A stretch of DNA of 64,000 nt from an uncultured Bacteroides sp. (lineage in GTDB: Bacteria; Bacteroidota; Bacteroidia; Bacteroidales; JACABE01). Of this stretch, positions 1,385 to 60,475 are shown piece by piece. Location of the stretch: assembly GCA_964422385.1 (NCBI GenBank), contig CAYRBL010000001.1, forward strand, positions 19,999 to 83,998, in the 5' to 3' direction. Each line of letters begins with the position of its first letter. The stretch's first letter is position 1. The notes under the pieces were generated by a model. It did not search any database. It had not been told where the DNA came from and saw only the letters and a list, made by a program, of their open reading frames with translations. The position numbers and the translations under genes were made by a program.

Positions 1385-3576
1385 TGGCTGTAACAATTTA
1401 TAACAAACTTGATTTAAAAAAGGCAGACGTACTAGATATTAGATATGGGCCTTGAAAAGATACAACTTCTGCAATTGCAGGAGTTGCATATAAAGCGGTA
1501 GGGCTAACTGTTGGTATAGTCATAGGTACTATTGATCCAAGTTATTTTGATTCGTCAGGTAGATTAACTGGGACTTTACCAATTAATTTACCATCTACTG
1601 CAAAAGTAGTAGAATATTGGTGAGAGACTGATACTTCAAGTTTAGTACTTAAATCACAAGATTTATCTACTTATTATAATAAAACTGAAACAGATAATTT
1701 ACTTAATGTAAAAGCTAATCAAACTATTTTAGTATCATTAATAAATCCTGATCCTATAACATTAAATATAGGAGATAAAGTTTATAATCCAGATGCTAAA
1801 TTAATATATAATGTTATATCAGGAAATCCAGATAATACTTATGATGCTGGAACAAGTCCACAGTTAGGAGTATTATATGAATGTAATAATTTACTTTATG
1901 AATGAAACGGCACTGATTTAATTTTATTAGGATCCTCTTCAGGCTTATTTGATGGAGATTATAATCATTTAACTAATAAACCTACATTAGGTACAGCTGC
2001 TGCTAAAAACATTCCTGCAACTGGAAATGCTTCTGCTACAGAAGTAGTATATGGTACAGATAGTAGATTAACAGATTCAAGAACTCCTAATTCACATGCT
2101 GCATCACATACAAATGGTACTGATGATATTGCAATAGCCACACCTAGTGTAAGTGGTAGTGAGGGAAGTAAAGGTTTATTATCTGCAATTGATAAAGAGA
2201 AATTAAATAGTATAGCAAGTGGCGCACAAGTAAATGTTGCAACTAATTTAGGACAAGGTACAATAACAACAACTACAGTTCCTTTAACATCTAGTACAGG
2301 TTCTGGAACTACTTTATCAGCAGCAACACAATCTGCTGCAGGTGTAATGTCGTCTACGGATAAAACCAAATTAGATGGTATAGCTAGTGGTGCTAATGTT
2401 GGTGTAGTTCCAAATGGTGCAATTACTGGAGCTACAAAAACTAAAATAACATATGATTCAAAAGGACTTGTAACTAGTGGTGCTGATGCTACGGCTGACG
2501 ATATATTAGACGGAACTAATAAACATTTATTAACAACTGCACAACAGACAGTGTTAAATAATACAAGTGGCACTAACTCTGGAGATAATGCAACCAACAG
2601 TCAATATAGTGGTTTGGCCACATCAAAACAAGATGTCTTAAGTGTAGATGCAAATGAGGGAATAACTATTACCGCAAATTCAATAGGAACTCTTTATAAT
2701 TCAACTATTTCAGATAGTGTTCAAAGTGTAGTAGTAGGTGGAGCTCCAGCACAAGCTGCATCTGTTTGAAAAGCAAAATCTTTAGTACAAGTTTTAGATA
2801 CTATTTTATTTCCAACTATTTTAGCATCAATAAAAACAAATAAATCAGTTGATTTAACTATAAGTGGTACAACAGGAACTTTAGAAAATGGCCAAACCAT
2901 TTCTCGAACTTTAACTGCAACATTTAATAGAGGGGAGATATATAATGGAGATGGTACAACAAATGCAAATCCACTTGTTGGGACTGCAACCCAATATACA
3001 TTTACAGGAACAAATATTTCAAGTACACCACAAGCTGGAAACACATTAGCAGTCTCAAACGTAGTTGTAGATGGTTCAAATAACTGAGCAGTTACAGTTA
3101 ATCATAATGCCGGCAGTGGAAATTATTTTGATAATAAAGGAAATATTGGAACCAATTTAGATGCAAATCGTGTTAGTGGGACATCAGTTGATTCTTCCTC
3201 AAGTCCAACTGTAACAGGTGTTTATCCTTGATTTTATTTAAAATCCTCTTCACCAATTACAGCGAATGCTATGGCTACTGCTATTCAAGCAGGTACAGCA
3301 ACAAAAGTAGTAGCATCAAGTACAGGAACAATATCTATACCTTATAACGTAAATGCACAGTATTTAGCAGTAGCTTATCCTGCAGCATCAACAACTAAGA
3401 TAGTATATTATGTAACTGCATTGGATAATGGAGCTATTACAGTAGTATTTGAGGCTGTAACAACACAGAGTGTAAACTCTCCTGATTCTTATTGGTCAGC
3501 ACAATCATATAAAATACATGTTAGTAAGTCTGCATTGACAAACTCTAACGCAACAATAGAATTAAGAAATTCATAA
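1384..3576 (+). CDS. tail fibre protein (730 aa with TGA=Trp)
   Basis: Merges track ORFs 2347-2769 and 3271-3576 with upstream open frame. Six in-frame TGA. Phage tail-fibre repeat motifs GLLSAIDKEKLNSI (about 2170-2215) and GVMSSTDKTKLDGI (about 2341-2385). N-terminus is paralogous to the next gene. Confidence 0.8.
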
Positions 3577-3577
3577 T

Positions 3578-6500
3578 ATGGCATTAACAGGAATACAATT
3601 ATCAGCTGGTATCGTAGTAGGATCTAACGTAAGTGTAGATGCTAAATATGGACCATATGCTGATGTACCAACAGCAAACAGTCAAATTGGTTCAACTTTA
3701 AGATATAAAGGATTAACTGTAGGAATATTATCAGGAGGATCAGTAATAGAATATTGATATAAAGATGATATATTAGATACTAGTTTAATAGTAAAATCTC
3801 CGGATTTATCTACTAAACAAGATACTTTAGTTTCAGGTACTAATATTAAAACTATTAATGGAACTTCAGTTTTAGGTAGTGGTAATATTAGTATTACTGG
3901 TGGCGGTGCCGGCGGAGATACTAGTGCTATACATACTACTATAGCAAATGAAATTAGTACACTTACTGAGAAAACAACTCCTGTAGGAACTGATTTGATT
4001 ATTATAGAAGATTCAGCTGCAAGTGGAGTTAAGAAAAAAGTTCAATTAACTAATACTCCTATATCTTCGGCAACACAAACAGCATTAAATGCTAAAGAGC
4101 CTACAATAACAAGCGGTACAACAAGTCAATATTATCGTGGTGATAAAACTTTTCAGACTTTAGATAAAACGGCAGTAGGTTTAAGTAATGTAGATAATAC
4201 TTCTGATACAAATAAACCAGTAAGTACAGCAACACAAACAGCACTTAACGGTAAAGAAAATAATATTACTGCAACAACTAGTGCAGATTATTATAGAGGA
4301 GATAAAACTTTCCAACCATTAAATAAAGCAGCAGTTGGGTTAGGTAATGTTGATAATACATCAGATGCAACAAAAAATTCTGCAATTGCAACACTTACTA
4401 ATAAAACAATAGATTATAATAATAATACTTTACAAAATATTCCTTTGGCTGCTGGTGGATTAACTCAACCAACAATTAGTGGAAATACTTCAAGTGGAGT
4501 ATTAACTATTGAAAGTATGTTAGCTAATTTATATTCTACATCAGATCAAACTGGAGATATAAAGAAATATACAATTGCAGCAACAAATAGTTTATCTGCT
4601 TTAAGTCCTAATACATATTATTATTTATATGTTGATTATACAGGAGGTAATCCAGCATATGCAATAACTACAGATAATACAATAATTACTCATTCTAATA
4701 AAATTGCAGTAGCTCAAATTTATTGAGAAAGTGTTGGAAGTATAAATGAATTTGATATTTTTTATGTAGGTACTTATGGTTATGGATTAGCTAATAAAGT
4801 AGCACATAGATTAATACATACTGAAAGATTTGGTTATGAGTCTGGATTAGGATTAGGTGAGGATGGCAGTCGACATATAACTATTGGGAGTGGTTCTATA
4901 TGATATGATGGTGAGAATGTAATGATAAACACAACATTAAATTCAGGAAGTACACCATATCATTTTTATTATCATACTGAGGTAGGTGATTGGAATTTAA
5001 CAACTGCAAATATTTATAACAATACTCAATACGATTCTACATTAACAGGTTTACAAACTTTATCTAATGGTAAATATGCTGTAAATTGGGTATATAGAAG
5101 TTTAGCTGGAACAAGTACAGAAATGTATGTAGTATTAGGAAATGGAAATTATACTTTAGCACAAGCTCAAGCTTCTACTCCTCCAACTGTTACAGCTAAT
5201 TTATCTAAAATGTCTATCTTAGTAGGTAGAATTATAGTACAAAAAGGAGCAACAACTGCTACACAAATTGATTCTGCATTTACAAAAACATTTGCAACAT
5301 CAGGTGTATTTAATCATAATGATTTAAGTAATATACAAGGTGGTTCTGCAGGAAATGAATATCATTTAGGTTTAACTAATGAATCGTTAACTAAGACTAC
5401 GCCAACAACATCAGATAACTTATTATTAAAAGATGCAGCAGATAGTACTTGAAAAAATGCAAGTCTAGCAAATATTCCAATCTCAACACCACAACAAACA
5501 GTGTTGGATCAAAAGAAATATTTTCATGGTATATTATCAAGAAGTACAGTATTACCTTTACCAACAACAAGTTTATCTACACCTATATTTACTTTAAGTA
5601 CAGGAACGACTAATTTAATTTATTATAATCAAGGTGTTAAATATACTGTTTCTGTAGATAAAGCCACAGCATTACAAGGAAATCCTTCTACAGCACAAAC
5701 TAGTGGTAATTTAGTTATTGGTCAATATTATATTATTAATACTTACGCAGGAGGTGATTTTACTAATGTAGGTGCAGCATCTAATGCACAGTACGTTGTA
5801 TTTCAAGCAACTGGTACAACACCTGCAAGTTGAGGTGGAGGTTCAACATTATATAACATGTCGGGATTATATTGAATATATTTTTCTGATGCTAATGGTA
5901 CATTAGTTAATAGTACTATATTTCCAGGAATGGATGATACAAATGTTATAGTTTCTGCTGTATATTGGAATGGAACAACAGGTATCGTATGAGATGAAAG
6001 ACACTCTTATAACAGAGATATTCAATGACATACATGAGCACATAGTACTATTGGTACAAGATATGGTAGTGGATTAAGTTTTTCATTTGCTGGAACAACT
6101 AATACTGATACAACATTTACAATAGGTGCTGGTAATATATATGATGAGGATATAGCCTTTACTATAGGTTCTACAACAAAAGCTAGAATATGATATCAAA
6201 ATAGTGTATCAACTTATACTTTTGTAAGTTCGTTGTCTAATAGACCTTATTATACAGCTAGTGAAAGTACACCTGCTGCAGGTATATATGCTGTAAATGG
6301 AAGTACATATGCACTAACAGCACCTTTAACATCATCAACAAGATATTTTAATTATTTTGTTTATGCTACTACTTCAATTGCTAATCCTATACATATATTT
6401 GTAGAAACAGTTGCAGTTGGAAATATAGGAGGTTATACTTCAGTAACAAATGCTAGAGCAGCATCTCTTCCAAATATTAATTCTGTAGGTTTAAGTCCAG

Positions 6501-6961
6501 AATATAAATTACTTTATAGGGTAATTGTAAATGGCGCTGGGTTAGTTCAAACTGTTACTACAGCAGATGATTATAGAGCACAAACTTCTTTAGCGGGAGG
6601 TGTAAGTGCAAGTACTACAGCATCAAGTGTTTCATTTGCTCCTTATAGTTCTGTTACAGCAAGTACTGTACAAACAGCAATACAACAATTAGCTAGAGTA
6701 CAATTAGGTGTATTTAAAAATGGATTAACATCAGTTGCACAACCACAAGCTTTTAGTTATCCTTATAATTTAACTTGTACAGCAGTAACTAAACAATTAA
6801 ATTGTAGTGATTATTCTGTAACAATTGGGGCGACTACTTATAATACAGCAAGTACTTTAGTGGGAGTTTCTATACCAGCTAATACTACAATAACTTTTAA
6901 TGATTTAACAATTTCAGGAGCAGGAGTAATAGCTAATGCTTTATTTACTTTTAATGAATAA
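3578..6961 (+). CDS. tail fibre protein (1127 aa with TGA=Trp)
   Basis: Merges track ORFs 3995-4726, 4922-5452, 5501-5833 and 6233-6961, all phase 2. Ten in-frame TGA, no TAA/TAG. Tandem fibre repeat YYRGDKTFQ.L.K.AVGL.NVDNTSD (4124-4400). N-terminal domain shared with CDS 1384-3576. Confidence 0.8.
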
Positions 6962-6967
6962 TAGAAT

Positions 6968-7222
6968 ATGATACAAATAACAGACACAGTACAATTTGAG
7001 AATGGTTTATTATCTGAACAAACAGATGAATTTAAACAATGGTATGGAGAAAATGTGGCTTCTCAAATTACAGATTTGCTTCCTATAGAAGCAAGAGATA
7101 AATATAATAGACCTTATTTATGAAAAGTTTCAGTAGCAGGATATACATTTGAAGTATATCCCCAATACATTTATGAAACAGCTTCTAATTGGGCAATGTC
7201 TAACATTTTAATTAAATTATAA
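6968..7222 (+). CDS. small hypothetical protein (84 aa) within tail-fibre cluster
   Basis: ATG 6968, one in-frame TGA (PYL-W-KVS), TAA 7220-7222 overlapping the next ATG. Not in the ORF track because it is split by TGA. Confidence 0.5.
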
Positions 7223-9951
7223 TGGCATCAAATTTATTTAAATTAAAAACTGTTCCAAATCCAGATGGAAGTGAATCATCTAATTTTGTAAATAATACAA
7301 GTTATGCATTTGTACATACTTATTTAGGAGATGATTCTACAGGAAATGGAACTAGAGAATATCCATTTAGAAGTGTAGCTAGGGCAGCATTAAAAAATAA
7401 TAAAATAGTATTTAGAGGAGTTATTAATGAAAGTCTAGTTAATATAGCTATTATTGGGGATGATATTAATCAACAAGTTACTACATCTAATTTTGGAATT
7501 ACATATGGACAAGGAACTAGTCTTGTTAATTTAACTACTGAATATCCAACTCCTATAGGATATGGACTACCTTTATCAAGAACAATATTCACTAAAAGTA
7601 ATTCTCCTTCTTTTGCTTCGACAAATGAAAATCAAGGATTTAGAAATTGTTTATGTTATGGTTTAATTTCTGGAACTAATTCATCAAGTATTGGAGTATT
7701 TATAAATAATACAGTTAATAGATTGAATTATAATGGAACTGGAGTACAATATGTAAAAAATTCAATTATAATAACTGATTTTACTCCTACTTCTTCATTA
7801 TCTTGATTTTATTATAATATATTATTAAGTAATACAATAATTAAAAGTAATGGAATAAATATAGTAATTCCAAATTTTACAAATGATAGTAAAGCAAATC
7901 TTCAAATTTTAAGAAATGCTTTACAATGTTCAGCTGGTTCTGAAGCTTTTGTTTATTCAAGTTATACATATGTAGCAGGAGTATCTGCAACTTTTACAGG
8001 AAGTATTAATGGTACTGGAACAACTGCTAAAATAGCACATGATTCTGGAGTTACTTGTTTTGGATTAAATAATTCTTATAATGGTACATTACAATCAGCA
8101 ATAACAGCAAATAGTACTCCAACTACAATTACATTATTGATATCAAATCCAACAGCATTTCCATCAACTGGAACAATTACTATTCCAAATACAGGAAGTA
8201 TTAGTGCATCAACAACATTAACAATGTTATCTAAAGATTCTTTTGGAAATGAAGTTAATTTAATTATTAAAGAAACTAGAAATGGAGGGAGTCATCCAAA
8301 TATTTTTAATAATTATAATACAAATATTACAACAACTTTAGGAACTACAATTCCAATAAATCCAGTAACTGCTTTAACTACTGTTGTTTTAACAAATGGT
8401 TCAGCTTTTCCTTCAACCGGAGATTTATTTATTACTAATGATGATGGAAGTGGGTATGAAGTATTTACTTATACTTCAAAATCAGGTAATAATTTTACAG
8501 GAAGTTATAAATTTCAAAAAGCACATACTAGTGGTGTTACAGTAATACAATATGGAAGTGTAATAGATTATACTTTAAATCCAGATGTAAATAATGAAGC
8601 ATTATGAGCAAGTGATATTGGAGCATATACAGGATGTTTTAAACCAACATCACCTGTAAATTCATCTGTAACAACATTTGGAACAGTAACAGATGTAAAT
8701 ACATCTGGAGTTGATACAGCCAATGTTTCAAATTTAATGTTAAAAAACTCCGATGATACAATATCTTTTCAAAGTAGTGGAACTGGACAAATATGAAATA
8801 GACTTAGGACTATTGGCGTTATTACAATTCCTATAGGTACTACATTTAAAGGTTTACAAACCATTTCTACAGATGGAAGTCCTTTTGGCTATTATTTTGG
8901 TAAATATCAAAATTTAGTTTCTGCAAGTTTTATTTATGCAACAAATGCAACAGGTAGTCCATCACCTACAACACTTAGTCCAAACTCTATTTATAAAGTA
9001 AGTAATATTGCACATGATATTACAAAAGCTATAATATATGGAAATACACAATATTTACCAGACTTTTTTATAAATACAATACCTATTGGTACTATTGCGG
9101 TAACAAACGGAAGTCCTAATGTTACAGGTACAAATACTACATTTACTAAATTTTATAAAGTAGGAGATACGATAGTAATAAATGGAATATCTAAAACTGT
9201 ATCTTCAGTTACTGATACAGCAATAATCGCTGATTCAAATTATACAGCAGCGTATAATGGAAGTTATACTCCTCCTTTAACATTTACTCTTACTAATCCT
9301 GGAAGTGGTACTGAAACAGTATTATATAAAATCTTAGGTGATCCAATAGAAAGTGTTGAAGTATATCCTTATGATGATTCTGCAGGAACAGTTCCAAGTG
9401 TAACGTTTCCTAAATTCTCAGCACCTTTAGCAGCACTAGTTTTATGTCTTTATTATAGTGCTACGGGAGCAAGTAGATATGAAAAAACAACTGGAGCTCC
9501 TGTTTTATTTTATGATTTAGTAAATATAGCACAGTTAATGGCTGATTTTCCTGGAACAAATCCAGTAACTACATTAGCAACAAGTTTAAGTGGGAATACA
9601 ACAACTGTAGTACTAACTTCATCATCAGGGTTTCCTCCATTTGGAACAGCAAGAGTTGGAGCAACACCTTTTGTTTATACTTCAATTACAAGTAATACTT
9701 TAAATGGATCGAATCAAACTATGGGAACAATTACTGCTGGAGAAAGAGTAGACTTATTATATAAATTAGATAATCCTAAAATATCATATTATTCTTCTGG
9801 AAGTGCAATTAATACAGGATGGCAAGTAAGTAATGCTGATGAAGAGTTTTTAACTCTATCACAGAGCGCTTATTTTACAACATCAACTCCATCATTTAAA
9901 TATTGTAAGTTAGAAATAAATGGTCATTTTGATTTAGCATTCGATTACTAA
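7222..9951 (+). CDS. large tail fibre/spike-like protein (909 aa with TGA=Trp)
   Basis: Merges track ORFs 7222-7806, 8137-8607 and 9538-9951, all phase 1. Three in-frame TGA. T/S/N-rich beta-type composition and position in the fibre cluster. Confidence 0.65.
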
Positions 9952-9952
9952 T

Positions 9953-10237
9953 ATGAGTTTATTATCAGAGCATTTAGCTATTCATAGTACAGATACAGCA
10001 AGAAATCAAATCGAAGCTGTATCTGTACCAAGGATATCAAGTATTGGTTTAGTTTTAGATTTTGGAATTGTTCCTTCAAATAATGCAAATAAATCTTTAA
10101 TTTCAAAAATCAGTAGAATTGGTGTAACTATAGATTATGGTGCTGTTCCTAATAAAAATTATTTTCCAACAAGAATTAATACTTTAGGAATTATAGTAGA
10201 TACTATACCTGCAAATTTAATGATACAAGTTTTATAA
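9953..10237 (+). CDS. small hypothetical protein (94 aa) with three internal I..xG...D.G.VP.N repeats
   Basis: Track ORF. Start is 1 nt after the upstream TAA. Repeats are ISSIGLVLDFGIVPSNN / ISRIGVTIDYGAVPNKN / INTLGIIVDTIPAN. Confidence 0.45.
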   Translation: MSLLSEHLAIHSTDTARNQIEAVSVPRISSIGLVLDFGIVPSNNANKSLISKISRIGVTIDYGAVPNKNYFPTRINTLGIIVDTIPANLMIQVL

Positions 10238-10238
10238 A

Positions 10239-10565
10239 ATGATTATATCAAATTTAATATTAATTATATTATTTGCAATTTATAATGGATTAATTATTAG
10301 GTGACAACAAAAAATAGATAGTGCGACATTATGACATATAGTATCGTTTATAATTAGAATTATATTAATTATCCAAATAGATAATATAGGACTAATGTTA
10401 ATATTATTTTTTATATCTTGATTTGGATATAATACAATTATAAATATACTTTTAAAACAAAAATGAAATTATTTTGGAAAATATGATTTTATTCAAGGTA
10501 CTTGATATTATCTTTTGAATATTATAATTTTATTAGTTGGTATTTATTTAACAATAAAAAATTAA
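10239..10565 (+). CDS. putative holin: 108-aa multi-pass membrane protein visible only with TGA=Trp
   Basis: ATG 10239 lies 1 nt after TAA. Five in-frame TGA (first at 10302-10304), no TGG, and TAA at 10563-10565. Translation is MIISNLILIILFAIYNGLIIRWQQKIDSATLWHIVSFIIRIILIIQIDNIGLMLILFFISWFGYNTIINILLKQKWNYFGKYDFIQGTWYYLLNIIILLVGIYLTIKN, with 3-4 hydrophobic helices. Sits immediately upstream of the endolysin. Confidence 0.6.
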
Positions 10566-10566
10566 C

Positions 10567-11067
10567 ATGAGTAATATATTAATAGAATTAGTAACACATT
10601 TTGAGGGTCTTCATGATGGAGATCTTCATCAAATAGGTCTTCAACCTAAAATGGATCCAGTGGGAATCTGGACAGAAGGTTGGGGAAGAGCAATGATAGG
10701 TAAAGATGGAAAATTTATTAAAGGTGCAGACAAAAAAACTTTAGCTTATGCATCACAAACAATACATACCAAAGAAGAGGCAGATGCAGCATTATTAGTA
10801 GATTTGAAACCTTTTCAATTACAAGTTCATAGAAAAGTTACTATACCTCTAACTGAAGCTCAAGAAGCAGCATTGGTATCATTTTTTTATAATACAGGAG
10901 GAAGTAGCACACTTTGTAAGTTGGTTAATGCCAAAGACCCAAGTCTAGTAGACTGGTGGTCTTCTCATTATACTTCTGCCCAAGGAGTTGAATTGAAAGG
11001 TTTGAAATTAAGAAGACAAACTGAGGCTCATCTATTTTCTACAGGTGACCTTAAGTTTTATAACTAA
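10567..11067 (+). CDS. endolysin, GH24 (T4/lambda-type phage lysozyme)
   Basis: Motifs THFEG...D..G..T.GWG near the N-terminus and ALVSFFYNTG ... GLKLRRQTEAHLF are typical of the Phage_lysozyme/GH24 family. All Trp are TGG. TAA stop. Confidence 0.85.
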   Translation: MSNILIELVTHFEGLHDGDLHQIGLQPKMDPVGIWTEGWGRAMIGKDGKFIKGADKKTLAYASQTIHTKEEADAALLVDLKPFQLQVHRKVTIPLTEAQEAALVSFFYNTGGSSTLCKLVNAKDPSLVDWWSSHYTSAQGVELKGLKLRRQTEAHLFSTGDLKFYN

Positions 11068-11087
11068 AAAATAAATTAAATGTTATT

Positions 11088-11144
11088 CTACCCTTATTAT
11101 TAACAAAGTTTAATGAATATATATTTTGTTAGTAATAAAGGTAG
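11088..11144 (+). promoter_or_regulatory. long imperfect hairpin at the lysis/head module boundary
   Basis: CTACCCTTATTATTAACAAA (11088-11107) pairs with TTTGTTAGTAATAAAGGTAG (11125-11144): 18 Watson-Crick pairs, 1 G-U and 1 mismatch, with a 17-nt loop. No T-tract follows it. Confidence 0.5.
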
Positions 11145-11152
11145 TAACTTTG
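11145..11152 (+). promoter_or_regulatory. possible Bacteroidota-type -7 promoter box (TAnnTTTG)
   Basis: TAACTTTG matches the TAnnTTTG consensus, 86 nt upstream of ATG 11238. A TTTG at 11125 is only 16 nt upstream, shorter than the canonical spacing. A second exact match, TAAGTTTG, lies at 31733-31740 upstream of CDS 31765. Confidence 0.25.
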
Positions 11153-11237
11153 CACTAAATAATGGAATACAACTATTTCATTGATAAAGATGAATAAACG
11201 AGATAGATTTTAAATATTAAACAATTGTAAATGTAAA

Positions 11238-12224
11238 ATGATTATGGCAGACTTAGACAGCATCTTTGATGACGATTTAGAACTAGATAAACCTTTAGAT
11301 GAAGGCGGTGAGTACATCGAACCATCTGTGGATCCCGATAATTTTTTTGATGATGAACCAATTCCAGCAGGAACAGGTGATTCTGTATTAGATGAATATC
11401 TTAAGAGTAGAGGAGTGACAAATTCCACTGTTACAATATTAGATGATAACGCTGAAGAAAAAGAAGTTAATTTTTATGATCTAAGTAAAGATGAACAGCT
11501 GGAGATATTAAATTCAATTTCACAGAATGAGTCAGACACTGACTTGGATGAAAATGAAATAGAGTTAATAAATCATTTAAGATCTAATAACTTATCATGG
11601 AATGATTATTTGGAAGGTTATAAAAAATCAATTATTGATGAACTTGGAGTTCAACCTACTCAAACTTATGATATAGACGCTTACGATGACCAAGAACTTT
11701 ATCTGTTAGATTTAAAACAAAAATATGATTTATCAGACGAAGAGCTTTCAAAGGAGCTTGAAAAAGAATTACAAGATGAAACACTTTTCAAAAAGAAAGT
11801 GGACGTTCTTAGAGCAGAATATAAACAGCTAGAAGATCAATATAACGAGAATCAACAAGCAGAATTCGAGAAACAAAGAGAAGAACAATACAATCAGTTT
11901 TCGGACACGATGGTTAATGTTGCTTTGCAAACTCCAGAGTTCTACGGAATTGAATTAGAAGATGATGAGAAAAATGAGGTTCTTTCATTCCTGTTAGATT
12001 TAGACGAGAATGGAACAAGTGATTTTTATAAAAGCCTAAACGATCCAAAGAAGCTCTATGAAGCTGCATGGTTCTTACGTTATGGGAAAGAGTCATTCGA
12101 CGCTTTAAAAAATGCATATGAATCTGAGATAGCGAAGTTAAAGAAGCCAGATAAACCCAGTGCTGTAAGAAGAACAACATCTCCTACAGACAAACAAACA
12201 AACAGTATTCACGACTTATTTTAA
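11238..12224 (+). CDS. acidic coiled-coil protein, scaffold-like (328 aa)
   Basis: Track ORF (alternative ATG at 11244). Very D/E-rich with heptad-like segments (KKKVDVLRAEYKQLEDQYNENQQAEFEKQREEQ). Lies directly upstream of the capsid protein candidate. No TGA. Confidence 0.5.
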   Translation: MIMADLDSIFDDDLELDKPLDEGGEYIEPSVDPDNFFDDEPIPAGTGDSVLDEYLKSRGVTNSTVTILDDNAEEKEVNFYDLSKDEQLEILNSISQNESDTDLDENEIELINHLRSNNLSWNDYLEGYKKSIIDELGVQPTQTYDIDAYDDQELYLLDLKQKYDLSDEELSKELEKELQDETLFKKKVDVLRAEYKQLEDQYNENQQAEFEKQREEQYNQFSDTMVNVALQTPEFYGIELEDDEKNEVLSFLLDLDENGTSDFYKSLNDPKKLYEAAWFLRYGKESFDALKNAYESEIAKLKKPDKPSAVRRTTSPTDKQTNSIHDLF

Positions 12225-12236
12225 AACTAGATTACT

Positions 12237-13667
12237 ATGGTAGTAGCAAGTTACGTAACCGTAAAGCCAGAATTGGCACACAGTAGAACTTATGAAGATT
12301 TCTACAAATTATTAGGAACACGTCCTAAAATGATGGGAGTTATGGCCCGCATGTATACACATAATACAGCGACTTTCTTAACAGAAGCCTTAATGAACAT
12401 TTATTATAATCAAAAAACAGCTAACAAATTCCAACCAATTAACTCGTTAATGATCGAGTGGGAAATTGATGTTGAGTTCGTTAAAAGAGTTGAGTTCGCA
12501 GCTGCTCCAACTGGAGACGGAACTAACGGTTCTGATATCTTAATGTATTTCAAAGAAAGATATTATGAAAAATATGATACATTCAAAGTAGACGGTTCTC
12601 GTCAACAACTGATTGTAAAAACAACTCCTGTTAGAAAAGCAGATAATTTCTGGGAATATACAGTTCAATTAATTGACTCTGATTTCTCATCAATCTTAGA
12701 CACATCGTATTGCCAAATTGGTGGTACTACAAGATTCTTATCTAACATCATGCCTGAATATCATGAAGAAGGATATACAAAATATCAATCTAATATTGAA
12801 AAACACCGTAACTGGATTACAGAACATAGAAATGACATTTCTTATTCCGCTCGTTACGCACAAGCTGAAGATCAATTTATTAAAATCGCACAAGGCGAAG
12901 GCGCTGGCGAATTAAAAGAAAAGATCTTTAAACTAAATAAAATAGAAAAAGACTTACTAGAAAACTTCCAAACTGTAAAAAATAACCACTTACTATGGGG
13001 AAAAACTACAATGGATAAAAATGGTAAATCTACAGTACAAACTGAAGATGGTCGTCCACTTATCGCAGGTGATGGTCTTATTCCACAAATCGAAAGATTC
13101 GCATCTAAATACAAATACGCTAAACTTAACGTAAATGTAATTAACACAGTGATTGACCAAATGAATCAAAAAGCTGCTAATGCAACTGGTAACAGTTATA
13201 CATTCGTAGTTAATGATAGACTATGGGGACAAATCAATACAACTTTAGGAGACTGGTTGAAACTTTGGGGATCTACTCCAACAATGATGTATTCTAAAGC
13301 TGCTCAATCAATGGTGAAAGCTGACAACCCTATCAAAGTAGGTGGAACATTTGTATCTTACGAGATTGCAGGTAACCACGTAACTTTCATGGTTGACCGT
13401 GCTCTTACAAAAGAGTATGATAGAAAAGGTTATGGTATCTGTTTAGACATGTCTCCAGACGTATCTACTAACCAACCTGCTATCGCAGCATTTACTTTAG
13501 AAGGTGCTGAATTCGTTACTTCTAAATACCCAGGTGTTGGTGGAGTAGATGGTATCACTAGTGGTATCGTATCTAGCCCAGTAGCAGGATCTAAATTGAT
13601 CGTAGCTGGTTATTCTGGTATCGCAGCATTTGCACCTTACAAATCATTCATTATTGAAGAAGTGTAA
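12237..13667 (+). CDS. major capsid protein candidate (476 aa)
   Basis: Size and position (after the scaffold-like gene, before a strong terminator) fit an MCP. The composition resembles crAss-like major capsid proteins as I remember them. All 7 Trp are TGG. TAA stop. Confidence 0.7.
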   Translation: MVVASYVTVKPELAHSRTYEDFYKLLGTRPKMMGVMARMYTHNTATFLTEALMNIYYNQKTANKFQPINSLMIEWEIDVEFVKRVEFAAAPTGDGTNGSDILMYFKERYYEKYDTFKVDGSRQQLIVKTTPVRKADNFWEYTVQLIDSDFSSILDTSYCQIGGTTRFLSNIMPEYHEEGYTKYQSNIEKHRNWITEHRNDISYSARYAQAEDQFIKIAQGEGAGELKEKIFKLNKIEKDLLENFQTVKNNHLLWGKTTMDKNGKSTVQTEDGRPLIAGDGLIPQIERFASKYKYAKLNVNVINTVIDQMNQKAANATGNSYTFVVNDRLWGQINTTLGDWLKLWGSTPTMMYSKAAQSMVKADNPIKVGGTFVSYEIAGNHVTFMVDRALTKEYDRKGYGICLDMSPDVSTNQPAIAAFTLEGAEFVTSKYPGVGGVDGITSGIVSSPVAGSKLIVAGYSGIAAFAPYKSFIIEEV

Positions 13668-13678
13668 GTAATTAATTA

Positions 13679-13712
13679 GGGAGAGGTCCGCCTCTCCCTT
13701 ATTTAGATTTTT
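13679..13712 (+). terminator. rho-independent terminator after the capsid gene
   Basis: Perfect 8-bp GC-rich stem GGGAGAGG (13679-86), loop TCCG, CCTCTCCC (13691-98), followed by TTATTTAGATTTTT. Confidence 0.8.
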
Positions 13713-13750
13713 ACTATTAAGATAGAAAATAACAAAAATATATAATATAA

Positions 13751-14647
13751 ATGAATATGAGTAATGAAATAATTCTTAGAAGTGCTTATGGAAAAGTGAA
13801 TCAAACCTACTTTATCCAACCATGCCCAAATCCAAAAACAGGTAAATTGCCAGCATGTGTAAAGACAGTTGATTCAAATGGTGACATGATTTTGTCAGAA
13901 GAAGATGTTAGAAAAATGAGTAAAGGTGAAGCCCACTTTATTGCGGCTAACCAAGTATTCGAAATCGTAGATGGTACAAGTTTTGACCTTGATGATGTAA
14001 TTGATAAAGCAAAGTGGGAGTCAATTGAACATTGTAATTGGATTGCTAAAGATAGATTCCAACGAGACCAAGATGGTAATTTAATCATTGATGGTAATGC
14101 TAGAAAATATGGTGTAGCTGATTTATATGTTGAACGCCCAGGCGAACTTACAAAAGCTAAGCTGGATAAAAAACAACTTATCTTTAGAGCATCACAATAT
14201 ATCTACGAAGACTCTGAAGTTGAGAGAATCAAAAAATGTAGAGTTTTAGGACGTAACCTTAACAACGCTATTCCAGCTGACATACTTGATTATTTAATTG
14301 AAACAGCAGAAAAGACTCCTAAAAAGATTATTGATCTTTATGAAGGAGAAGATTGGAAAATGCATTTATTCTTATTAGATGCAATTGATCGCGGAGTAAT
14401 CCGTAGAGCAGATGGTATCTATAAATATGATGATAAAATGTTAGGTGGTTCTATGGAAGCTACAATAACATTCCTAAGAGATATTAGATTTAAGAAAATG
14501 TTAGATTCCATCAAACGTGAGACTTACCCAGAATTACAACCTAAACAAGTAATTCAAGAGATGGAAGAAGATTTCACTAAAGATATTCCTTACTTTGAAG
14601 ACGAGCAAAAAGCAGAATCTACAAAGAAAGTACAAACAAAAAAATAA
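13751..14647 (+). CDS. head-module hypothetical protein (298 aa)
   Basis: Track ORF, no TGA, TAA stop. Syntenic with the conserved genes downstream of the MCP in podophage head modules. Confidence 0.7.
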   Translation: MNMSNEIILRSAYGKVNQTYFIQPCPNPKTGKLPACVKTVDSNGDMILSEEDVRKMSKGEAHFIAANQVFEIVDGTSFDLDDVIDKAKWESIEHCNWIAKDRFQRDQDGNLIIDGNARKYGVADLYVERPGELTKAKLDKKQLIFRASQYIYEDSEVERIKKCRVLGRNLNNAIPADILDYLIETAEKTPKKIIDLYEGEDWKMHLFLLDAIDRGVIRRADGIYKYDDKMLGGSMEATITFLRDIRFKKMLDSIKRETYPELQPKQVIQEMEEDFTKDIPYFEDEQKAESTKKVQTKK

Positions 14648-14657
14648 AATTAATTAA

Positions 14658-15800
14658 ATGACAGCAAAGCAAGTCTTTGAGTATGCTTTAGTTGAATTAA
14701 ATAAAAAAGATGCTCCAAGTTTATTGCTAGAGGATTATAATTATTTTATTAACAAAGCAGCAAATCAATACATCAATAAGATGTATAATGCATACGATGT
14801 CAATCAACAAAAGACTGATGATTTAAGAGTTTTAAAAAGCTCCGCAGTGTTAATACCATCACAATCATCTAATTGGTCTGCTTCTAATTTGTTAAACAAT
14901 ACTTACGAAGTTGATTTACCTGATGATTATTTACATATTTTAAATTGTGTTGTAGAATACACAGTGCTTAAAAACTATAAGTGTTATAATGCAGGTACTC
15001 CTTGGCAACAAGGGGCTAAAAGAATTACTGCAGATATGTGGTCTCAATTAATTCATAATTATTATTTACGCCCGTCATATAAGAATCCATACTTTTATAT
15101 AAATAATATAACTACAGATTCTATATTTCCAACTGCTGATAACCAAGTTAGCATTGCCACTAAAACAACTATTGTTTTAGATGAAATTGGCGACATTGTG
15201 CCAAATGACACAATCACGATTAATGGAGTTACATATACATTTAAAACTACACCAACATTACCGTTTGGGGTCAAATGTTCATATGGTGCGGTTACTGAAT
15301 ATTCAAGCTTAACATATTTAAAATTTAAATTGTTAGAATCAACAGACCCTGTTATTACTAGAAACACATACAGTGGATCTTTAATAATTTCTGGTTATGA
15401 ATTAACAGTAACTCATACTTGTGGTGGTGATGTAGATGTAGTTACTACATCTGGAAATGATTTAGTACAACGTAGTGAAGATATTAGATATGGGAATAAG
15501 TCTAAAATTAGAATGGAAATTCGTTATGGTAAGGATTCTTCTACATTTGGCCTGTCAAAAGTTTATATTGATTATTTAAAAACCCCACAATTCATCAGAT
15601 TGACACAAGACGAGATTGATGAAGTTGAAGATACATCACAGATATTAGAATTTCCTGATTATGTATGTCAAGAGATTGTAAATGAATTGGTTAAATTATT
15701 AATGGAAAATTCAAGTGATCCAAGATTACAAACAAATATCCCAATTAATCAATCAATTGCTTCTCCACAAGCACAACAAGAAGCTCCACGAAAACGATAG
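14658..15800 (+). CDS. head-module hypothetical protein (380 aa)
   Basis: Track ORF, no TGA, TAG stop. Confidence 0.7.
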   Translation: MTAKQVFEYALVELNKKDAPSLLLEDYNYFINKAANQYINKMYNAYDVNQQKTDDLRVLKSSAVLIPSQSSNWSASNLLNNTYEVDLPDDYLHILNCVVEYTVLKNYKCYNAGTPWQQGAKRITADMWSQLIHNYYLRPSYKNPYFYINNITTDSIFPTADNQVSIATKTTIVLDEIGDIVPNDTITINGVTYTFKTTPTLPFGVKCSYGAVTEYSSLTYLKFKLLESTDPVITRNTYSGSLIISGYELTVTHTCGGDVDVVTTSGNDLVQRSEDIRYGNKSKIRMEIRYGKDSSTFGLSKVYIDYLKTPQFIRLTQDEIDEVEDTSQILEFPDYVCQEIVNELVKLLMENSSDPRLQTNIPINQSIASPQAQQEAPRKR

Positions 15801-15836
15801 ATAACCCGTTTAAAACAAACATAAAATTTTAGAAAA

Positions 15837-16928
15837 ATGTTTAATTACACAACAACAACAATTTTAAACTCAAACTTAGATTCGAGTGGCTTAACTAAAG
15901 TTACAGGCTCTTCTGCAGGAGTTAACGTTCTTAGAGTAAACAACTTTAAGAAAGCAGGTATTGTAAGCGTTTATAAAAGACCTTACGCAGCAGGTGTAGC
16001 GGAAATTGCGAAAGTAACTATCCCTACAGTAACAGCTGGAAAAGTAATTAGATTAACAGTAGACATCAGACTGTCTCAACAAACAGATTCTGAATATGCT
16101 AACACATATTTATATTTCAAAAAACCAGTTGTTGTAGAAGTACTTGCTACAGGAACTGCTGCAACAGATGCAACTGCATTAGCTGCTGCATTTAATGGTT
16201 TAAAAACTGAATTTGGTTTTGGTTATTGCATTGCTGCAAAAATCAATACAGCTGATGTTCAAGTTACAGCTATTAACAACAACCAAAGATTTTGGGCAAT
16301 GACTGTTGAATCAGATAAAGCCAGCACTAACTCATTAATTCAACCAGAATATGATGATATTACAGCTAGCACTTTCTCTGTAACAAGACCAGGTTCTGTA
16401 GGATTTGGAGATGATGAATATATGGTTAAATCTATTATGTACCCAACTTACGAAAATACTCGTTACTTTGGTACAAACAAAGAAGAAAGACCAATCCTTG
16501 GTGGTAACTATACACAATACACATTAAGATATTCAATCGACAAAAATGTAGATTATAATATTGGTATCGCTGGTATGGGACAAAAATCTATTACTAATCA
16601 CGTATTCTATGTTAAATCAGATGTAGTTGCTGCTTTTGAAGCTGCTTTACAAACTGCAGCTGTTGATGTAGTAACAATTGGTGGTGACCAAGATTTAATC
16701 ATCGTTGGGGATCAAACAGTAGCAGCTAGCGCTGGTGCAACTCAATACACTGTATTGAATGCTTTAGCAGGAGAAACTGTTAACTGGACTAACTCAACAT
16801 TAACTGGAACTACTTCAGCTAATACTACAGGTATCTTAACAGTAGGTTCTACAACTGGAACAACTACATTGACTGCAACTGGAGCAACTTCAGGAAGAGT
16901 AGCCACAATGGTTATTACAGTAGTTTAA
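15837..16928 (+). CDS. capsid-associated protein with C-terminal bacterial Ig-like (Big_2) domain (363 aa)
   Basis: C-terminal approx 90 aa (nt approx 16659-16925): VNWTNSTL..SANTTGILTVGSTTGTTTLTATGATSGRVATMVITV matches the Big_2 pattern. Followed by a strong terminator. Confidence 0.65.
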   Translation: MFNYTTTTILNSNLDSSGLTKVTGSSAGVNVLRVNNFKKAGIVSVYKRPYAAGVAEIAKVTIPTVTAGKVIRLTVDIRLSQQTDSEYANTYLYFKKPVVVEVLATGTAATDATALAAAFNGLKTEFGFGYCIAAKINTADVQVTAINNNQRFWAMTVESDKASTNSLIQPEYDDITASTFSVTRPGSVGFGDDEYMVKSIMYPTYENTRYFGTNKEERPILGGNYTQYTLRYSIDKNVDYNIGIAGMGQKSITNHVFYVKSDVVAAFEAALQTAAVDVVTIGGDQDLIIVGDQTVAASAGATQYTVLNALAGETVNWTNSTLTGTTSANTTGILTVGSTTGTTTLTATGATSGRVATMVITVV

Positions 16929-16952
16929 TCTTAATTGATAACTTTCTTAAAA

Positions 16953-16984
16953 GGAGCGAGCAGCACTTGCTCGTTCCTTTTTTT
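16953..16984 (+). terminator. rho-independent terminator
   Basis: GGAGCGAGCA (16953-62), loop GCACT, TGCTCGTTCC (16968-77). This gives a 10-bp stem with one G-U pair, followed by TTTTTTT. Confidence 0.8.
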
Positions 16985-16996
16985 ATTTAAACTAAT

Positions 16997-17665
16997 ATGA
17001 TAAATAAACTAGCATCAGCAATATACAATGATATAGTTTCTGGTCTTGCCGGGATTACATCAACACCATCAATATCACTTGACCAATTAGAAGATGATAT
17101 TGTTGACGAAAGACTTCAGATAATAAAGGAATATGCTGCAAAGAATTTAGTTCCTAGAAACGATTTATTGATGTCAATAAATTGCATTCAGTTAGATTGT
17201 CTATCATTAGACAAATGTCCATGCGGAGATAAAACATATTCCAAACCACAATTGCATTTTGAATTACCACAAATCGTAAATGATATGGGTGCAGATGCAG
17301 TCGAATTTATTGGTGCAGTAGACAGAGAAGTATTCTTTAAAGTTTACACAAACACCTCATATCAATTTCACAAATATTTAAAACGTGGGGCACAACGTCC
17401 TTTCGTTTATATTGAACCCACTCCTAATACAAATAACATGTATGATGCATGGGTATTCGGAGCACCATTATTAAAAACTCTTACAGTAATTGCAATCTTT
17501 AAAGATCCAAGACAATTAATGCAATATGATTGCTGCGCAGGAGATGATATCGAAAATTATTCTTTTATCTCTGCTGAAATTAAAAAACGCCTTACTGAAA
17601 AGAAAATAAGATATTACCGTAGTTTAGCGGTACAACCAACGCCAAATAATCAAGCCCCAAAATAA
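16997..17665 (+). CDS. head/neck-module hypothetical protein (222 aa)
   Basis: Track ORF, no TGA. TAA overlaps the ATG of the next gene. Confidence 0.65.
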   Translation: MINKLASAIYNDIVSGLAGITSTPSISLDQLEDDIVDERLQIIKEYAAKNLVPRNDLLMSINCIQLDCLSLDKCPCGDKTYSKPQLHFELPQIVNDMGADAVEFIGAVDREVFFKVYTNTSYQFHKYLKRGAQRPFVYIEPTPNTNNMYDAWVFGAPLLKTLTVIAIFKDPRQLMQYDCCAGDDIENYSFISAEIKKRLTEKKIRYYRSLAVQPTPNNQAPK

Positions 17666-18384
17666 TGTATAGTGGGATAATATATAAATATACTTCGCCA
17701 TCAGGCAAAATATATATAGGACAGACATGTAATGAATATAGAAGAAGAAAACAATTCCTTAATATTAAGGGTACATATAGCTCTCCTAAAATAGACAACG
17801 CTAGGAAAAAATATAAACCTGAAAATTTTTTATATGAAGTTTTATATCAACACAAATCAAATAATAAAAAAGAACTGATTGATATATTAAATGAAAAAGA
17901 AATATTCTATATTAATGAATATGACTCAATAAAAATTGGATATAATTGTCAGCCTGGAGGATTATGTCTTATAAAGACAGAGGATTCCATAAAAAAGGCT
18001 ACAAAGAAAATATCTAAAATTGTACTACAGTATTCTTTAAATGGTGATTTTATAAAAGAATGGTCATCAACAATGGAAATAGAAAGAGTTTTAAATATTG
18101 ACCATACGCAAATTAGTGGTAATTGTTTAGGTAAAACCGATTATTGTCACGGATATATTTTTAAGTATAAAACTAATAAAATTATATTTAAGATTAATAA
18201 AGTAATTCCACAAAAAAGTAAAAAGAAATGCGGTATATGTCAAATAGACTTAAATGGAAATGAATTAAACAGATGGGATACTGTTACAAAAGCAGCAAAA
18301 GAACTACATATATGTAGAAATCATTTAAAAGAAATTGCGCTAGGTAGAACAGAATATAAAGGACATATTTATAAATTAATTTAA
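17665..18384 (+). CDS. GIY-YIG homing endonuclease, free-standing (239 aa)
   Basis: N-terminal GIIYKYTSPSGKIYIGQT ... R ... H ... YNCQPGG (GIY-YIG core). Two C-terminal NUMOD/IENR-like HTH repeats (EWSSTMEIERVLNIDHTQISGNCLGKT; RWDTVTKAAKELHICRNHLKEIALGRT). Confidence 0.8.
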   Translation: MYSGIIYKYTSPSGKIYIGQTCNEYRRRKQFLNIKGTYSSPKIDNARKKYKPENFLYEVLYQHKSNNKKELIDILNEKEIFYINEYDSIKIGYNCQPGGLCLIKTEDSIKKATKKISKIVLQYSLNGDFIKEWSSTMEIERVLNIDHTQISGNCLGKTDYCHGYIFKYKTNKIIFKINKVIPQKSKKKCGICQIDLNGNELNRWDTVTKAAKELHICRNHLKEIALGRTEYKGHIYKLI

Positions 18385-18390
18385 TAAACA

Positions 18391-19095
18391 ATGAGAGATT
18401 ATTCTTTTAATACAGCGTACACACAAGCAAGAGAATTATATGGATTAGAATTAGATCCAGATGTATTTGAATCAATAGGATTGATTGCTTGGGACAGAAT
18501 TGGAAATAAAGACTATAGACTATATAAATACAGTACTCAACCTATTGAAGATGCTTTAGGTTATTGGTACATAGATCTTCCTTGTAATTGTGATATTATT
18601 GAAGCAGTTACAACTAACTACGAAGATTATCAAAAAACTACACCTACTACATTAGCGGGTAATAATCAGAATGGGTGGATTGAAGGATATGTTGAATCAA
18701 GAAAATACAATACCGGTAATTTATATTCATCTGGTAAATATATTAAATATAGAGAAGAGGGAAATCGTATTATTATGAATGACCACTTTGAAGTAATTAA
18801 TATTTTCTATAAAGGCGTTGTTGTAGATGATACAGGACTACCTATGCTTAACGATAAAGAAATGGATGCAATAGCAGCTTTCTGTATTTTTGCAGATACA
18901 AGAAAGAAAGCTATCACAACTAAAGACCAAACAAGTTGGCAAATGGTTCCTTATTTAGAACAACAATGACTAATGAAATGTACTCAAGCTAGAGTACCTG
19001 ATTATATTAATCAAAATGAAATGGATGAAATCCTAAACGTAATCGCATCATGGGATAGAAAACGTTATGGTAAATCATTTAAACCAATAAGATAG
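18391..19095 (+). CDS. neck/tail-module hypothetical protein (234 aa with TGA=Trp)
   Basis: Track ORF 18391-18969 continues in frame through TGA 18967-18969 to TAG 19093-19095 (LEQQ-W-LMKCTQARVPDYINQNEMDEILNVIASWDRKRYGKSFKPIR). Confidence 0.7.
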
Positions 19096-20126
19096 TGAGA
19101 ATATTATTTAATCATGGATTAACCCCTGGAGAGATTTACACAAATACTCCTAAATCAATTATTGATAAAAAATGAAGATGAATGATCAGTCGCTATGGTA
19201 GCACTGATTCTTATGAAGATGCTATTGCTGATCCATTTAAATATTGCTTTGGTTTAATACTCCACAAAATAATTGAGGATAAAGTACGATTTAGAGTTCC
19301 AGCGAAGACTGAAGCATATATTGATTTTGAGATAGTCTCAGGCGAAAAATTCATTTCGCAGCGACAAAATGGAAGGTTCTCAGAGATTGATTTTATAGAG
19401 TCAGACTTCACTGGATACTTTCTAATGTATTATTTTAAGGCTAAGGCATACCAGAAGGCAATGCCAATTTATATTGGCGGAGAATTAAAAAGAAAATTTC
19501 TTGACAAAATTAACTCTGGTGTAAAGTTCTATACAACCAAAGATGTTACAATTGAAGATTTTATTGACCCAGTCCATGAAAGATTTCCTGATTTTACAAG
19601 AGCTGAAATCAAGAGACTACTACTTTATGGATTCAGAAGAATGCACTCAGCAATTAAGTTTGGCTGTGCAATCTCTATTAATACAAGAAAATATATTAAT
19701 TGTTTAGCTTATATAGGTAAATTAACACTAACTCCAGAAAAAAATATTAAAGAGTATAGTATAAGACGAGATAGGAAATTAAGAAAAATCGAAGGATGGA
19801 AGAAAGCTGAATTCGATGGATATTATTATATAGGTCTAAATCCTACAGGATTTGACCGCTGACTTGAAGATAATAAAACAAGTAAATCAATTGCTAAGTT
19901 CAATAATGTAATTCCTCGAAAAATACAAGAAGAAATATATTATAAAGCAAAGCATCTTCATGTGTTTAGATTTAAAAGAAAAACTTTTAAAGGGTGGGCA
20001 TATTGAGCTGATGAATTAAAGATCCGCGATTTAGAATATTTGGGAGAAGCTTATGAGCATAAATTTCATCCATCTTATAAAACATGAATAGAATTAAAAA
20101 AAGAATATGAGAAAAGAAGCAGTTAA
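19095..20126 (+). CDS. hypothetical protein (up to 343 aa with TGA=Trp); start uncertain
   Basis: Phase-0 frame opens after TAA 19080. Candidate starts are GTG 19095 (overlapping TAG as TAGTG) or ATG 19182. Five in-frame TGA (19173, 19179, 19860, approx 20005, approx 20086). TAA 20124-20126 lies 20 nt inside the next gene. Confidence 0.6.
20106..20123 (+). repeat. direct repeat, left copy (TATGAGAAAAGAAGCAGT)
   Basis: Exact 18/18 identity with 20943-20960. Confidence 0.9.
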
Positions 20127-20940: not shown

Positions 20941-20942
20941 AT

Positions 20943-20960
20943 TATGAGAAAAGAAGCAGT
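20943..20960 (+). repeat. direct repeat, right copy (TATGAGAAAAGAAGCAGT)
   Basis: Exact 18/18 identity with 20106-20123. Confidence 0.9.
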
Positions 20961-22092: not shown

Positions 22093-22112
22093 TAATTTAA
22101 TAAATAACAAAT

Positions 22113-30208: not shown

Positions 30209-30209
30209 T

Positions 30210-30788: not shown

Positions 30789-30789
30789 G

Positions 30790-60474: not shown

Positions 60475-60475
60475 T

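Follow-up and report, generated by a model that had tools for sequence, protein, structure and literature searches.

Borges et al. (bioRxiv 10.1101/2021.08.26.457843) reported that gut phages which reassign TGA or TAG, crAss-like phages among them, have their recoded stops concentrated in genes for structural proteins and lysis. A transmembrane (TM) protein of the lysis cassette is one of the few significantly TGA-biased families, and this recoding was proposed to block premature lysis; Agate phages carry a strongly TGA-recoded lysis-cassette protein with a TM domain, and crAss-like phages a TAG-recoded lysin and spanin (bioRxiv 10.1101/2021.08.26.457843). Lera (PV725988), a zeta crAss-like phage, has TGA in its holin gene and in three of its four lysin genes (PMC12386605). 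Multi-code crAss-like genomes have a block structure (Mgcod, bioRxiv 10.1101/2022.06.29.495998; PMC10136315). The locus described here, gene 10239-10565 of a 64-kb window (the whole stretch of 64,000 nucleotides that was analysed), is a further instance of this published pattern, and a TGA-bearing holin has been described before for a crAss-like phage. The gene has five in-frame TGA codons, stands directly before an endolysin gene, and probably encodes a holin or part of a holin system. What is new is limited to the protein family, which is unannotated and has neither a Pfam nor a PHROG entry, to the poorly represented lineage, and to a TGA-free sub-block that starts right between putative holin and endolysin.

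The window resembles the phages of Borges et al. in having, by its tail genes, a small TM lysis-cassette protein with in-frame reassigned stops, in its low GC and in its standard-coded early genes. The proposed consequence is also the same: no lysis protein would be made before the code switch. Unlike those phages, the window belongs to another lineage and its protein to another family, without Pfam or PHROG match; a TGA preference over neighbouring late genes is not demonstrable (p = 0.13 in the window, with two recoded genomes sampled), and neither the window nor the 6.5 kb that follow contain a suppressor tRNA. With Lera are shared a large crAss-like genome, the use of TGA as Trp in part of the genes (mostly structural), and the assignment of the codon by conserved Trp of relatives. 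Lera carries tRNA-Sup(TCA) and tRNA-Sup(CTA), whereas none was seen in the window, and the window endolysin is TGA-free, unlike the TGA-bearing lysins of Lera.

The window lies at roughly 68.2-132.2 kb of a 163,047-bp metagenomic contig (ENA ERZ4223863 NODE_25). With TGA as sense it resolves into 35 genes in close succession, every one of them on the + strand; in-frame TGA occurs in 21 of the 35, and the 34 complete genes close with TAA or TAG, never with TGA. The genome is that of a large crAss-like phage, because the window encodes Crass_capsid (PF23898 on 12237-13667, E=4.4e-14), CrAss_Ring_1 (PF24228 on 18391-19095, E=2e-7) and giant open reading frames (ORFs) of 1635-3139 amino acids (aa). 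Among GenBank phages the capsid protein matches only two unannotated records, at ~52% identity, and the lineage is poorly represented there.

The gene under study, its TGA codons and the endolysin gene behind it are the following.

10239..10565, + strand: putative holin or lysis-cassette membrane protein gene, 108 sense codons under TGA = Trp, unannotated family
10302..10304, + strand: TGA codon 22, aligned with a Trp kept in at least 90% of the family and encoded by TGG in L011, L012, L013 and L014
10332..10334, + strand: TGA codon 32, aligned with the single invariant Trp of the family (WH motif)
10419..10421, + strand: TGA codon 61, aligned with a Trp invariant across close homologues
10464..10466, + strand: TGA codon 76, aligned with the Trp of a conserved KW(N/Y)Y motif
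10503..10505, + strand: TGA codon 89, aligned with Trp in P0001 and L013 and with Leu or Val in P0002 and L014
10567..11067, + strand: GH24 (T4-lysozyme-type) endolysin gene, 166 codons, 4 TGG and 0 TGA

The frame opens with ATG at 10239, continues through 108 sense codons and closes with TAA at 10563-10565; a single C at 10566 separates it from the next ATG at 10567. It contains five in-frame TGA (codons 22, 32, 61, 76, and 89) and no TGG. A frame of 108 codons free of TAA and TAG is obtained at a frequency of 1.5e-5 in 200,000 shuffles of this stretch of 15.9% GC, and the remaining five frames hold 5-17 TAA/TAG each. The stretch is a genuine protein-coding gene, hidden by the recoding of TGA to Trp. 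Since the first in-frame TGA is codon 22, translation past residue 21 needs opal suppression. An earlier reading of this DNA, made from its sequence alone (the sequence-only reading), had described the hidden 108-aa frame, starting 1 nucleotide (nt) after the upstream TAA and ending 1 nt before the endolysin ATG, with TGA for all five Trp and an endolysin with TGG throughout; coordinates and codon counts (5/0 vs 0/4) confirm this description, and its statement that nothing is made beyond 21 residues without TGA suppression is a direct consequence of the sequence.

The meaning of TGA follows from the protein family. A search with the code-4 translation (TGA as Trp) retrieves two full-length homologues, P0001 and P0002, which are ~61% identical (E ~1e-30), and a profile search of 1.84 billion representatives yields 37 clusters (50% identity) at E<=1e-3, with proteins of ~80-140 aa; one 890-aa and one 300-aa protein matched by the profile were excluded from the family alignment. 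W32 is one of only two residues invariant in the 37-sequence alignment, and W22 is at least 90% conserved. On the contigs of P0001 and P0002 (L011 and L012) and on the homologue contig L013, TGA is a terminator and every Trp is TGG, and the family member of L014 has TGG for all six of its Trp. These four loci have TGG-Trp opposite the window TGA at 4-5 of the five positions, and Trp is invariant in them at codons 22, 32, 61, and 76. Because standard-code relatives carry TGG where the window has TGA, the alignments show that TGA is read as Trp in this gene. The reverse comparison agrees: in the nearest relative, L001, the three TGAs of the endolysin gene align with TGG-Trp of the window endolysin. 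Tail fibre comparisons with L001 and L014 likewise place window TGA at Trp. The sequence-only reading had proposed to compare TGA with TGG in related cassettes and had named frameshifts or TAA/TAG stops in relatives as signs of a non-coding interval; what is found is TGG-Trp at 4-5 of the five positions in L011-L014 and full-length homologues at 53-62% identity.

The family is absent from the reference collections. Pfam and PHROG scans place the window protein in no family above cut-off, and in no holin family. A tblastn search of 50,697 GenBank phages with the window protein and P0039 gives no match, and the viral contigs searched with the recoded protein (patterns containing Trp) contain no relative. 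Degenerate DNA patterns with TGR at the Trp positions recover one already known match from viral contigs and none from metagenome contigs, and the window sequence itself has no match in IMG/VR. A scan of genome contigs for the family finds a single short contig, from a Paludibacter metagenome-assembled genome (MAG). The gene is a candidate holin for a crAss-like lineage, backed by orthologues and missed by standard gene callers and family databases, and its family could be added to the lysis-gene annotation of Crassvirales.

Holins are small proteins, of about 60-150 aa, with one or more TM helices. Those of class I (lambda S105) span the membrane three times, N-out and C-in, and end in a short basic tail; four-TM holin families also exist. 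Kyte-Doolittle hydropathy (19-residue window) of the protein encoded by 10239-10565 delimits hydrophobic segments at about 2-20, 29-47, 50-68, and 88-106. AlphaFold2, run on the homologue P0002 (62% identical to the window protein) with the family alignment, gives a confident model with predicted local distance difference test 94.2 and predicted template modelling score 0.79, in which four helices (2-20, 27-42, 47-68, and 85-104) agree with these segments. The product is accordingly a helical membrane protein, with four helices as against the 3-4 hydrophobic ones counted by the sequence-only reading, and no other of the 35 window genes encodes a small multi-TM protein. It is like canonical holins in being small (108 aa), in its several TM helices, and in its place directly before a signal-less endolysin of the muramidase type. 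Many family members lack helix 4 and have three helices and a short basic tail such as IRKLLPFIKFDK or IKKLFKIK, as in class I. The window copy differs from class I by its fourth helix and by having almost no hydrophilic C-terminal tail, since it terminates as ...LTIKN right after helix 4. No dual-start motif is present and, unlike canonical holins, the family is unusually conserved and matches no curated holin in sequence or fold. A GtrA-like flippase, alike in size and in its four TM helices, was also considered and has no supporting Pfam match.

The lysis context is provided by the gene that follows. The product of 10567-11067 matches Phage_lysozyme (PF00959, E=2.8e-20, 73.3 bits against a cut-off of 22.3) and the PHROG endolysin family phrog_7 (E=7.5e-22). 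By hydropathy it has no hydrophobic N-terminal, signal or signal-arrest-release (SAR) segment, and because of this it would need a holin for export. The gene order around family members is the following.

Window: member, 1 nt, GH24 endolysin
L012: member, 156-aa TM protein, GH24 endolysin, 78-aa weakly holin-like protein, 199-aa protein with N-terminal hydrophobic stretch
L011 and L013: member, 121-aa and 77-aa TM proteins, 193-aa phrog_33083-type endolysin, 214-aa protein with N-terminal TM segment
L019: member, 113-aa protein with N-terminal TM segment, GH108 and PG_binding_3 protein, lipoprotein-like protein with C-terminal TM segment; CrAss_Ring_1 nearby
L014: tail fibre, small gene, member, arranged as in the window

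The GH24 protein of L012 is 52% identical to that of the window, and the 193-aa protein of L011 and L013 matches endolysin phrog_33083 (E=3.8e-11). The family thus stands 0-2 genes upstream of cell-wall hydrolases of three unrelated kinds (GH24, GH108, and phrog_33083-type) in crAss-like phages. The lysis context claimed by the sequence-only reading is upheld by these repeated placements near endolysins (L012, L011/L013, and L019). Because the family sits near three unrelated kinds of lysin, a role as holin or lysis membrane protein is likely, and we favour, with moderate confidence and mainly on grounds of genomic context, a family that is a holin or part of a holin system. The 108-aa four-helix protein of the inner membrane would then give the signal-less GH24 endolysin access to the cell wall.

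Several observations weigh against this assignment. No recognisable lysin lies beside the member in L015, L016/L017, L018, or L020/L021, and L001 has no copy at this locus. Further small TM proteins lie between member and lysin in L012, L013, and L019, and any of them could be the true holin. A Foldseek search of the AlphaFold2 model against BFVD and PDB returns nothing at E<=0.001, the best matches being uncharacterised phage proteins, and none of the 37 family members falls into a PHROG family, while in Pfam there are only sub-threshold matches of single members to unrelated families. The family is also unusually conserved for a holin and has polar residues within its helices (N16, H33, R40, Y64, and N65), which could mean another membrane function.

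These points are the substance of the most serious alternative, that the product is a membrane protein other than a pore-forming holin, such as an antiholin or lysis-timing regulator, a superinfection exclusion protein, or a small membrane enzyme or flippase, its TGAs being neutral AT drift in a weakly expressed gene. Strong conservation with polar or charged residues in the helices would suit such a protein, as would the TM proteins nearer the lysin in L012, L013, and L019, and the weak holin resemblance of two neighbours in L012 (the 156-aa neighbour to Phage_holin_4_1, E=0.093; the 78-aa neighbour to holin phrog_18836, E=0.0059). The position of the member, always behind tail-fibre-like genes, and the extreme AT shift of the window copy (15.9% GC vs 32-35% in the closest homologues) also fit. 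Yet the window has a single endolysin, which itself lacks a signal or SAR segment, and no TM protein close to it but this product; the association extends over three unrelated types of lysin, and many members have three helices with a basic C-terminal tail. We therefore consider a function other than that of a holin unlikely, although it is the alternative that fares best.

Two further observations concern the surroundings of family members. In L020 (1-921) the member directly follows an ORF that by eye is integrase-like (C-terminal HxxRRS...GH motif), an arrangement which suggests that some members may belong to temperate elements. Members in L018 and L020 are followed by proteins of 181 and 186 aa, for which papain-like cell-wall peptidases were considered; no support came from Pfam, PHROG or PDB sequences, and this identity was rejected.

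Whether the use of TGA is special to the putative holin gene can be judged from the Trp codons along the window.

308-10237: tail genes, 22 TGA and 11 TGG (67% TGA)
10239-10565: putative holin gene, 5 TGA and 0 TGG
10567-18384, + strand: endolysin and head genes, including a scaffold-like gene and the crAss-type major capsid protein, 0 TGA and 24 TGG
18391-31398: 25 TGA and 27 TGG
31765-56876: giant genes, 9 TGA and 56 TGG
56878-64000: 0 TGA and 25 TGG

The contrast between the putative holin (5/5 TGA) and the endolysin (0/4) has a Fisher p of 0.008, and against the window-wide TGA share of 0.285 the 5/5 has p=0.002. Compared with the adjacent upstream tail genes (22:11), p is 0.13 and not significant. 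Other two-fold codons of the gene that end in A or G are 92% A-ending, so that the neutral probability of 5/5 is 0.92^5, ~0.66. The all-TGA state is what is expected from AT-biased synonymous drift where TGA is tolerated. By the same measure, comparable codons in 10567-18384 have an A-ending share of ~0.85, and P(0/24 TGA) is ~1e-20. The departure from neutral codon choice is the avoidance of TGA in the endolysin and head block, and not the 5/5 of the putative holin. The description of the locus as an unusually clean single-gene example, which the sequence-only reading had given, does not hold: in-frame TGA is present in 21 of 35 genes, the tail genes of the same operon are 67% TGA, and 5/5 is neutral.

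The TGA-free sub-block starts exactly at the boundary of putative holin and endolysin (10566). Genomes treated by Mgcod are similar in having TGA as sense on one strand block and as terminator or neutral on the opposite one, with stretches readable in either code; unlike that pattern, the TGA-free, dual-readable sub-blocks 10567-18384 and 56878-64000 lie inside a late region of a single strand, and one of their boundaries falls precisely between putative holin and endolysin in a single string of genes. The two TGA-free blocks could stem from avoidance of TGA where a protein is made in abundance, from expression at an earlier stage, or from a recent exchange of genes with phages of the standard code.

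Family copies from recoded genomes are available for comparison from two genomes (the window and L016/L017). The recoded member of L016 (3912-4259) has 4 TGA and 2 TGG against 13:13 in neighbour genes, which is not distinguishable. Both copies are shifted to AT: the window copy has 15.9% GC compared with 30.9% in its genome and 32-35% in the closest homologues, and the L016 copy 22.7% compared with 29.1%. At most loci with a standard-code copy, the GC of the copy equals or exceeds that of the locus. The window copy has an amino-acid composition that leans towards Ile, Asn, Lys, and Phe.

The closest relative, L001, decides the question of design. Its endolysin is 85% identical to the window endolysin and has TGA at three of the four conserved Trp positions, and only ~45 nt separate it from the small tail-associated gene, with no 108-aa gene in between. 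Because the L001 endolysin carries TGA at 3/4 Trp and L001 lacks the 108-aa gene at this spot, the TGA-free endolysin is not a conserved design. Between the tail fibres of window and L001, TGA has been exchanged for TGG at some sites and TGG for TGA at others, and the capsid keeps TGG in both phages. A 113-aa ORF with 2 TGA follows the endolysin in L001 (6521-6862) and has no counterpart in the window; its C-terminal INGGYNGLTDR was likened by eye to a fragment of chitinase or lysozyme type, which is our assumption.

A selective reading can be built on these data. The family would be a new crAss-like-specific holin family, and selection would keep one or more essential lysis genes of TGA-recoded lineages saturated with TGA (the holin here, the endolysin in L001) and drive them to extreme AT richness (GC of 15.9% and 22.7% for the two recoded copies, compared with ~30% or more elsewhere). 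If so, lysis timing would be set by the rate at which opal-suppression capacity builds up and not by holin triggering alone. We hold this idea to be speculative and rather doubtful.

A stronger form, built on the sequence-only reading, has the locus as a purpose-built lysis gate, in which selection turned all holin Trp codons to TGA and kept the coupled endolysin TGA-free, so that suppression switches on the holin directly and the endolysin through termination-reinitiation. Its attraction is plain, as a hypothesis of this kind is published, the 5/5 vs 0/4 and 5/5 vs window share comparisons are significant (p=0.008 and p=0.002), no other gene with at least four Trp codons is all TGA, the TAA-C-ATG junction is as described, and the L016 member is TGA-rich as well (4/6 Trp). 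The closer comparisons go against it: the upstream neighbours in the operon are 22:11, from which 5/5 has P=0.13, and the neutral P is ~0.66; the endolysin of L001 has 3 TGA and 1 TGG at the same Trp sites, in a genome without the gene at this spot; TGA and TGG are swapped both ways in the tail fibre; and the L016 member (4:2) is indistinguishable from its neighbours (13:13). In addition, 1-nt junctions are normal in the window, and genes without Shine-Dalgarno (SD) motifs do not need coupling for initiation. A purpose-built gate is thus improbable.

The TGA dependence is a property of the whole late block and not a gate built into one gene. In the late block of the + strand TGA is Trp and never a terminator, and in the mechanism we propose, holin translation in a standard-code cell would stop after 21 residues until opal suppression became available. 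Holin synthesis would be tied to the phage code switch, and so would the synthesis of tail proteins and of most other late products. Abundant head proteins, in this lineage together with the endolysin, avoid TGA. The locus opens no new question. It lends itself, within a small region, to a test of the published proposal that lysis is gated by recoding, with a putative holin of 5/5 TGA beside an endolysin of 0 and the opposite endolysin pattern in the nearest relative. It also calls for caution, as much apparent design is AT-biased drift wherever TGA is tolerated, and the stronger signal is TGA avoidance in the head genes.

The standard-code side of this mechanism is seen just past the window end on the same contig (L022, 17124-23597), where the strand flips to a module on the - strand with no in-frame TGA, containing ThyX-like, dGTP diphosphohydrolase, and SEC-C motif genes. 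Of these minus-strand genes, two have TGA as their stop: in one it is part of an ATGA overlap at 22885-22888, and in the other it is a tandem TGATGA near 22219. A third in-frame TGA follows the tandem, and if read in code 4 a 147-aa ORF would continue into the ThyX-like gene. The reading of this module as an early block rests on 6.5 kb beyond the window. Also on the - strand, at L022 18369-19157, is a TGA-free Glucosaminidase (PF01832) gene of 262 aa, convergent to the late block and with no adjacent TM protein; it may encode a virion-associated lysin or a second endolysin.

Bacteroidota use the standard code, and an SD-like motif is found for only 1 of 34 window genes, a scarcity that fits a host in this phylum. 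We infer a host of standard code and temporal control by a suppressor tRNA encoded outside the window. It counts against this scheme that scans of the 64-kb window and of the 6.5 kb that follow (L022) with ARAGORN and Rfam detect no tRNA; Rfam detects no other RNA family in either.

The host might instead use code 4 itself, with TGA as Trp, in which case the gene would be ordinary and nothing would be gated. The lack of a suppressor tRNA in the window and the next 6.5 kb, the lack of window genes ending in TGA, and the low GC of the window (30.9%) would all agree with this. Against it, two sub-blocks are fully TGA-free (0/24 and 0/25) although comparable codons are ~85% A-ending, and only 30% of the window Trp codons are TGA, compared with 80-90% in genuine code-4 genomes (bioRxiv 10.1101/2022.06.29.495998). 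Minus-strand genes on the same contig end in TGA, including the tandem TGATGA, the crAss-type capsid and ring proteins and the scarce SD motifs point to Bacteroidota, and one family member lies on the Paludibacter MAG contig. Crass-like phages with alternative codes infect standard-code hosts (review, PMC10136315). A code-4 host is, on these grounds, very improbable.

Last, the view of 10239-10565 as non-coding or a decayed pseudogene with an accidentally open frame, for which its 15.9% GC, the lack of a standard-code ORF, and the absence of the gene from the same position in the closest relative could be cited, is effectively refuted by the shuffle result (p=1.5e-5), the full-length homologues (53-62% identical) with conserved motifs, the fall of each TGA on a conserved Trp column, and the precise packing between neighbour genes.

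The genes upstream and the gap downstream of the putative holin and the endolysin are the following.

7222..9951, + strand: tail-fibre-like gene in the same tight gene string, 3 TGA and 1 TGG, 45-47% identical to the fibres of L001 and L014
9953..10237, + strand: tail-fibre-adjacent gene of 94 aa, no Trp codon, TAA at 10235-10237
11082..11148, + strand: long AT-rich hairpin of 67 nt with ~25 paired positions, fold z=-3.05, within the gap of 170 nt that separates endolysin and scaffold-like gene

In L014 the syntenic counterpart of gene 9953-10237 stands at 3462-3911, and L001 has a shorter one. The TAA-C-ATG spacing is ordinary for a window in which most junctions measure -1 to +1 nt. Because the genes lack SD motifs (1/34) and the endolysin leader is A-rich, initiation of the endolysin independent of upstream termination appears equally plausible as coupling, and the coupling argument of the sequence-only reading is not supported. 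The hairpin has no following T-run, and the gap that contains it is the only sizeable one nearby. The surroundings of the locus contain no canonical intrinsic terminator and no excess of canonical sigma-70 promoters. The arrangement suggests that the tail transcription unit finishes with the two lysis genes, and the hairpin may mark its end.

Three genes resembling homing endonucleases occur among the structural genes, with GIY-YIG and NUMOD1 on 20107-20940 and NUMOD1 on 17665-18384 and 30790-31398; two of the three carry one TGA each. In L001 (8463-10748) the major capsid gene is in two pieces, the N-terminal one at 8463-9044 and the C-terminal one from 10350 on, and the 369-aa ORF between them resembles the window gene at 30790-31398. 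The interruption is probably an insertion of intron or intein type, whereas the window capsid gene is without insertion. The gene at 31407-31691 encodes a 94-aa low-complexity protein rich in Gln, Gly, and Ala; it ends in TAG and has the highest GC of the window (46%).

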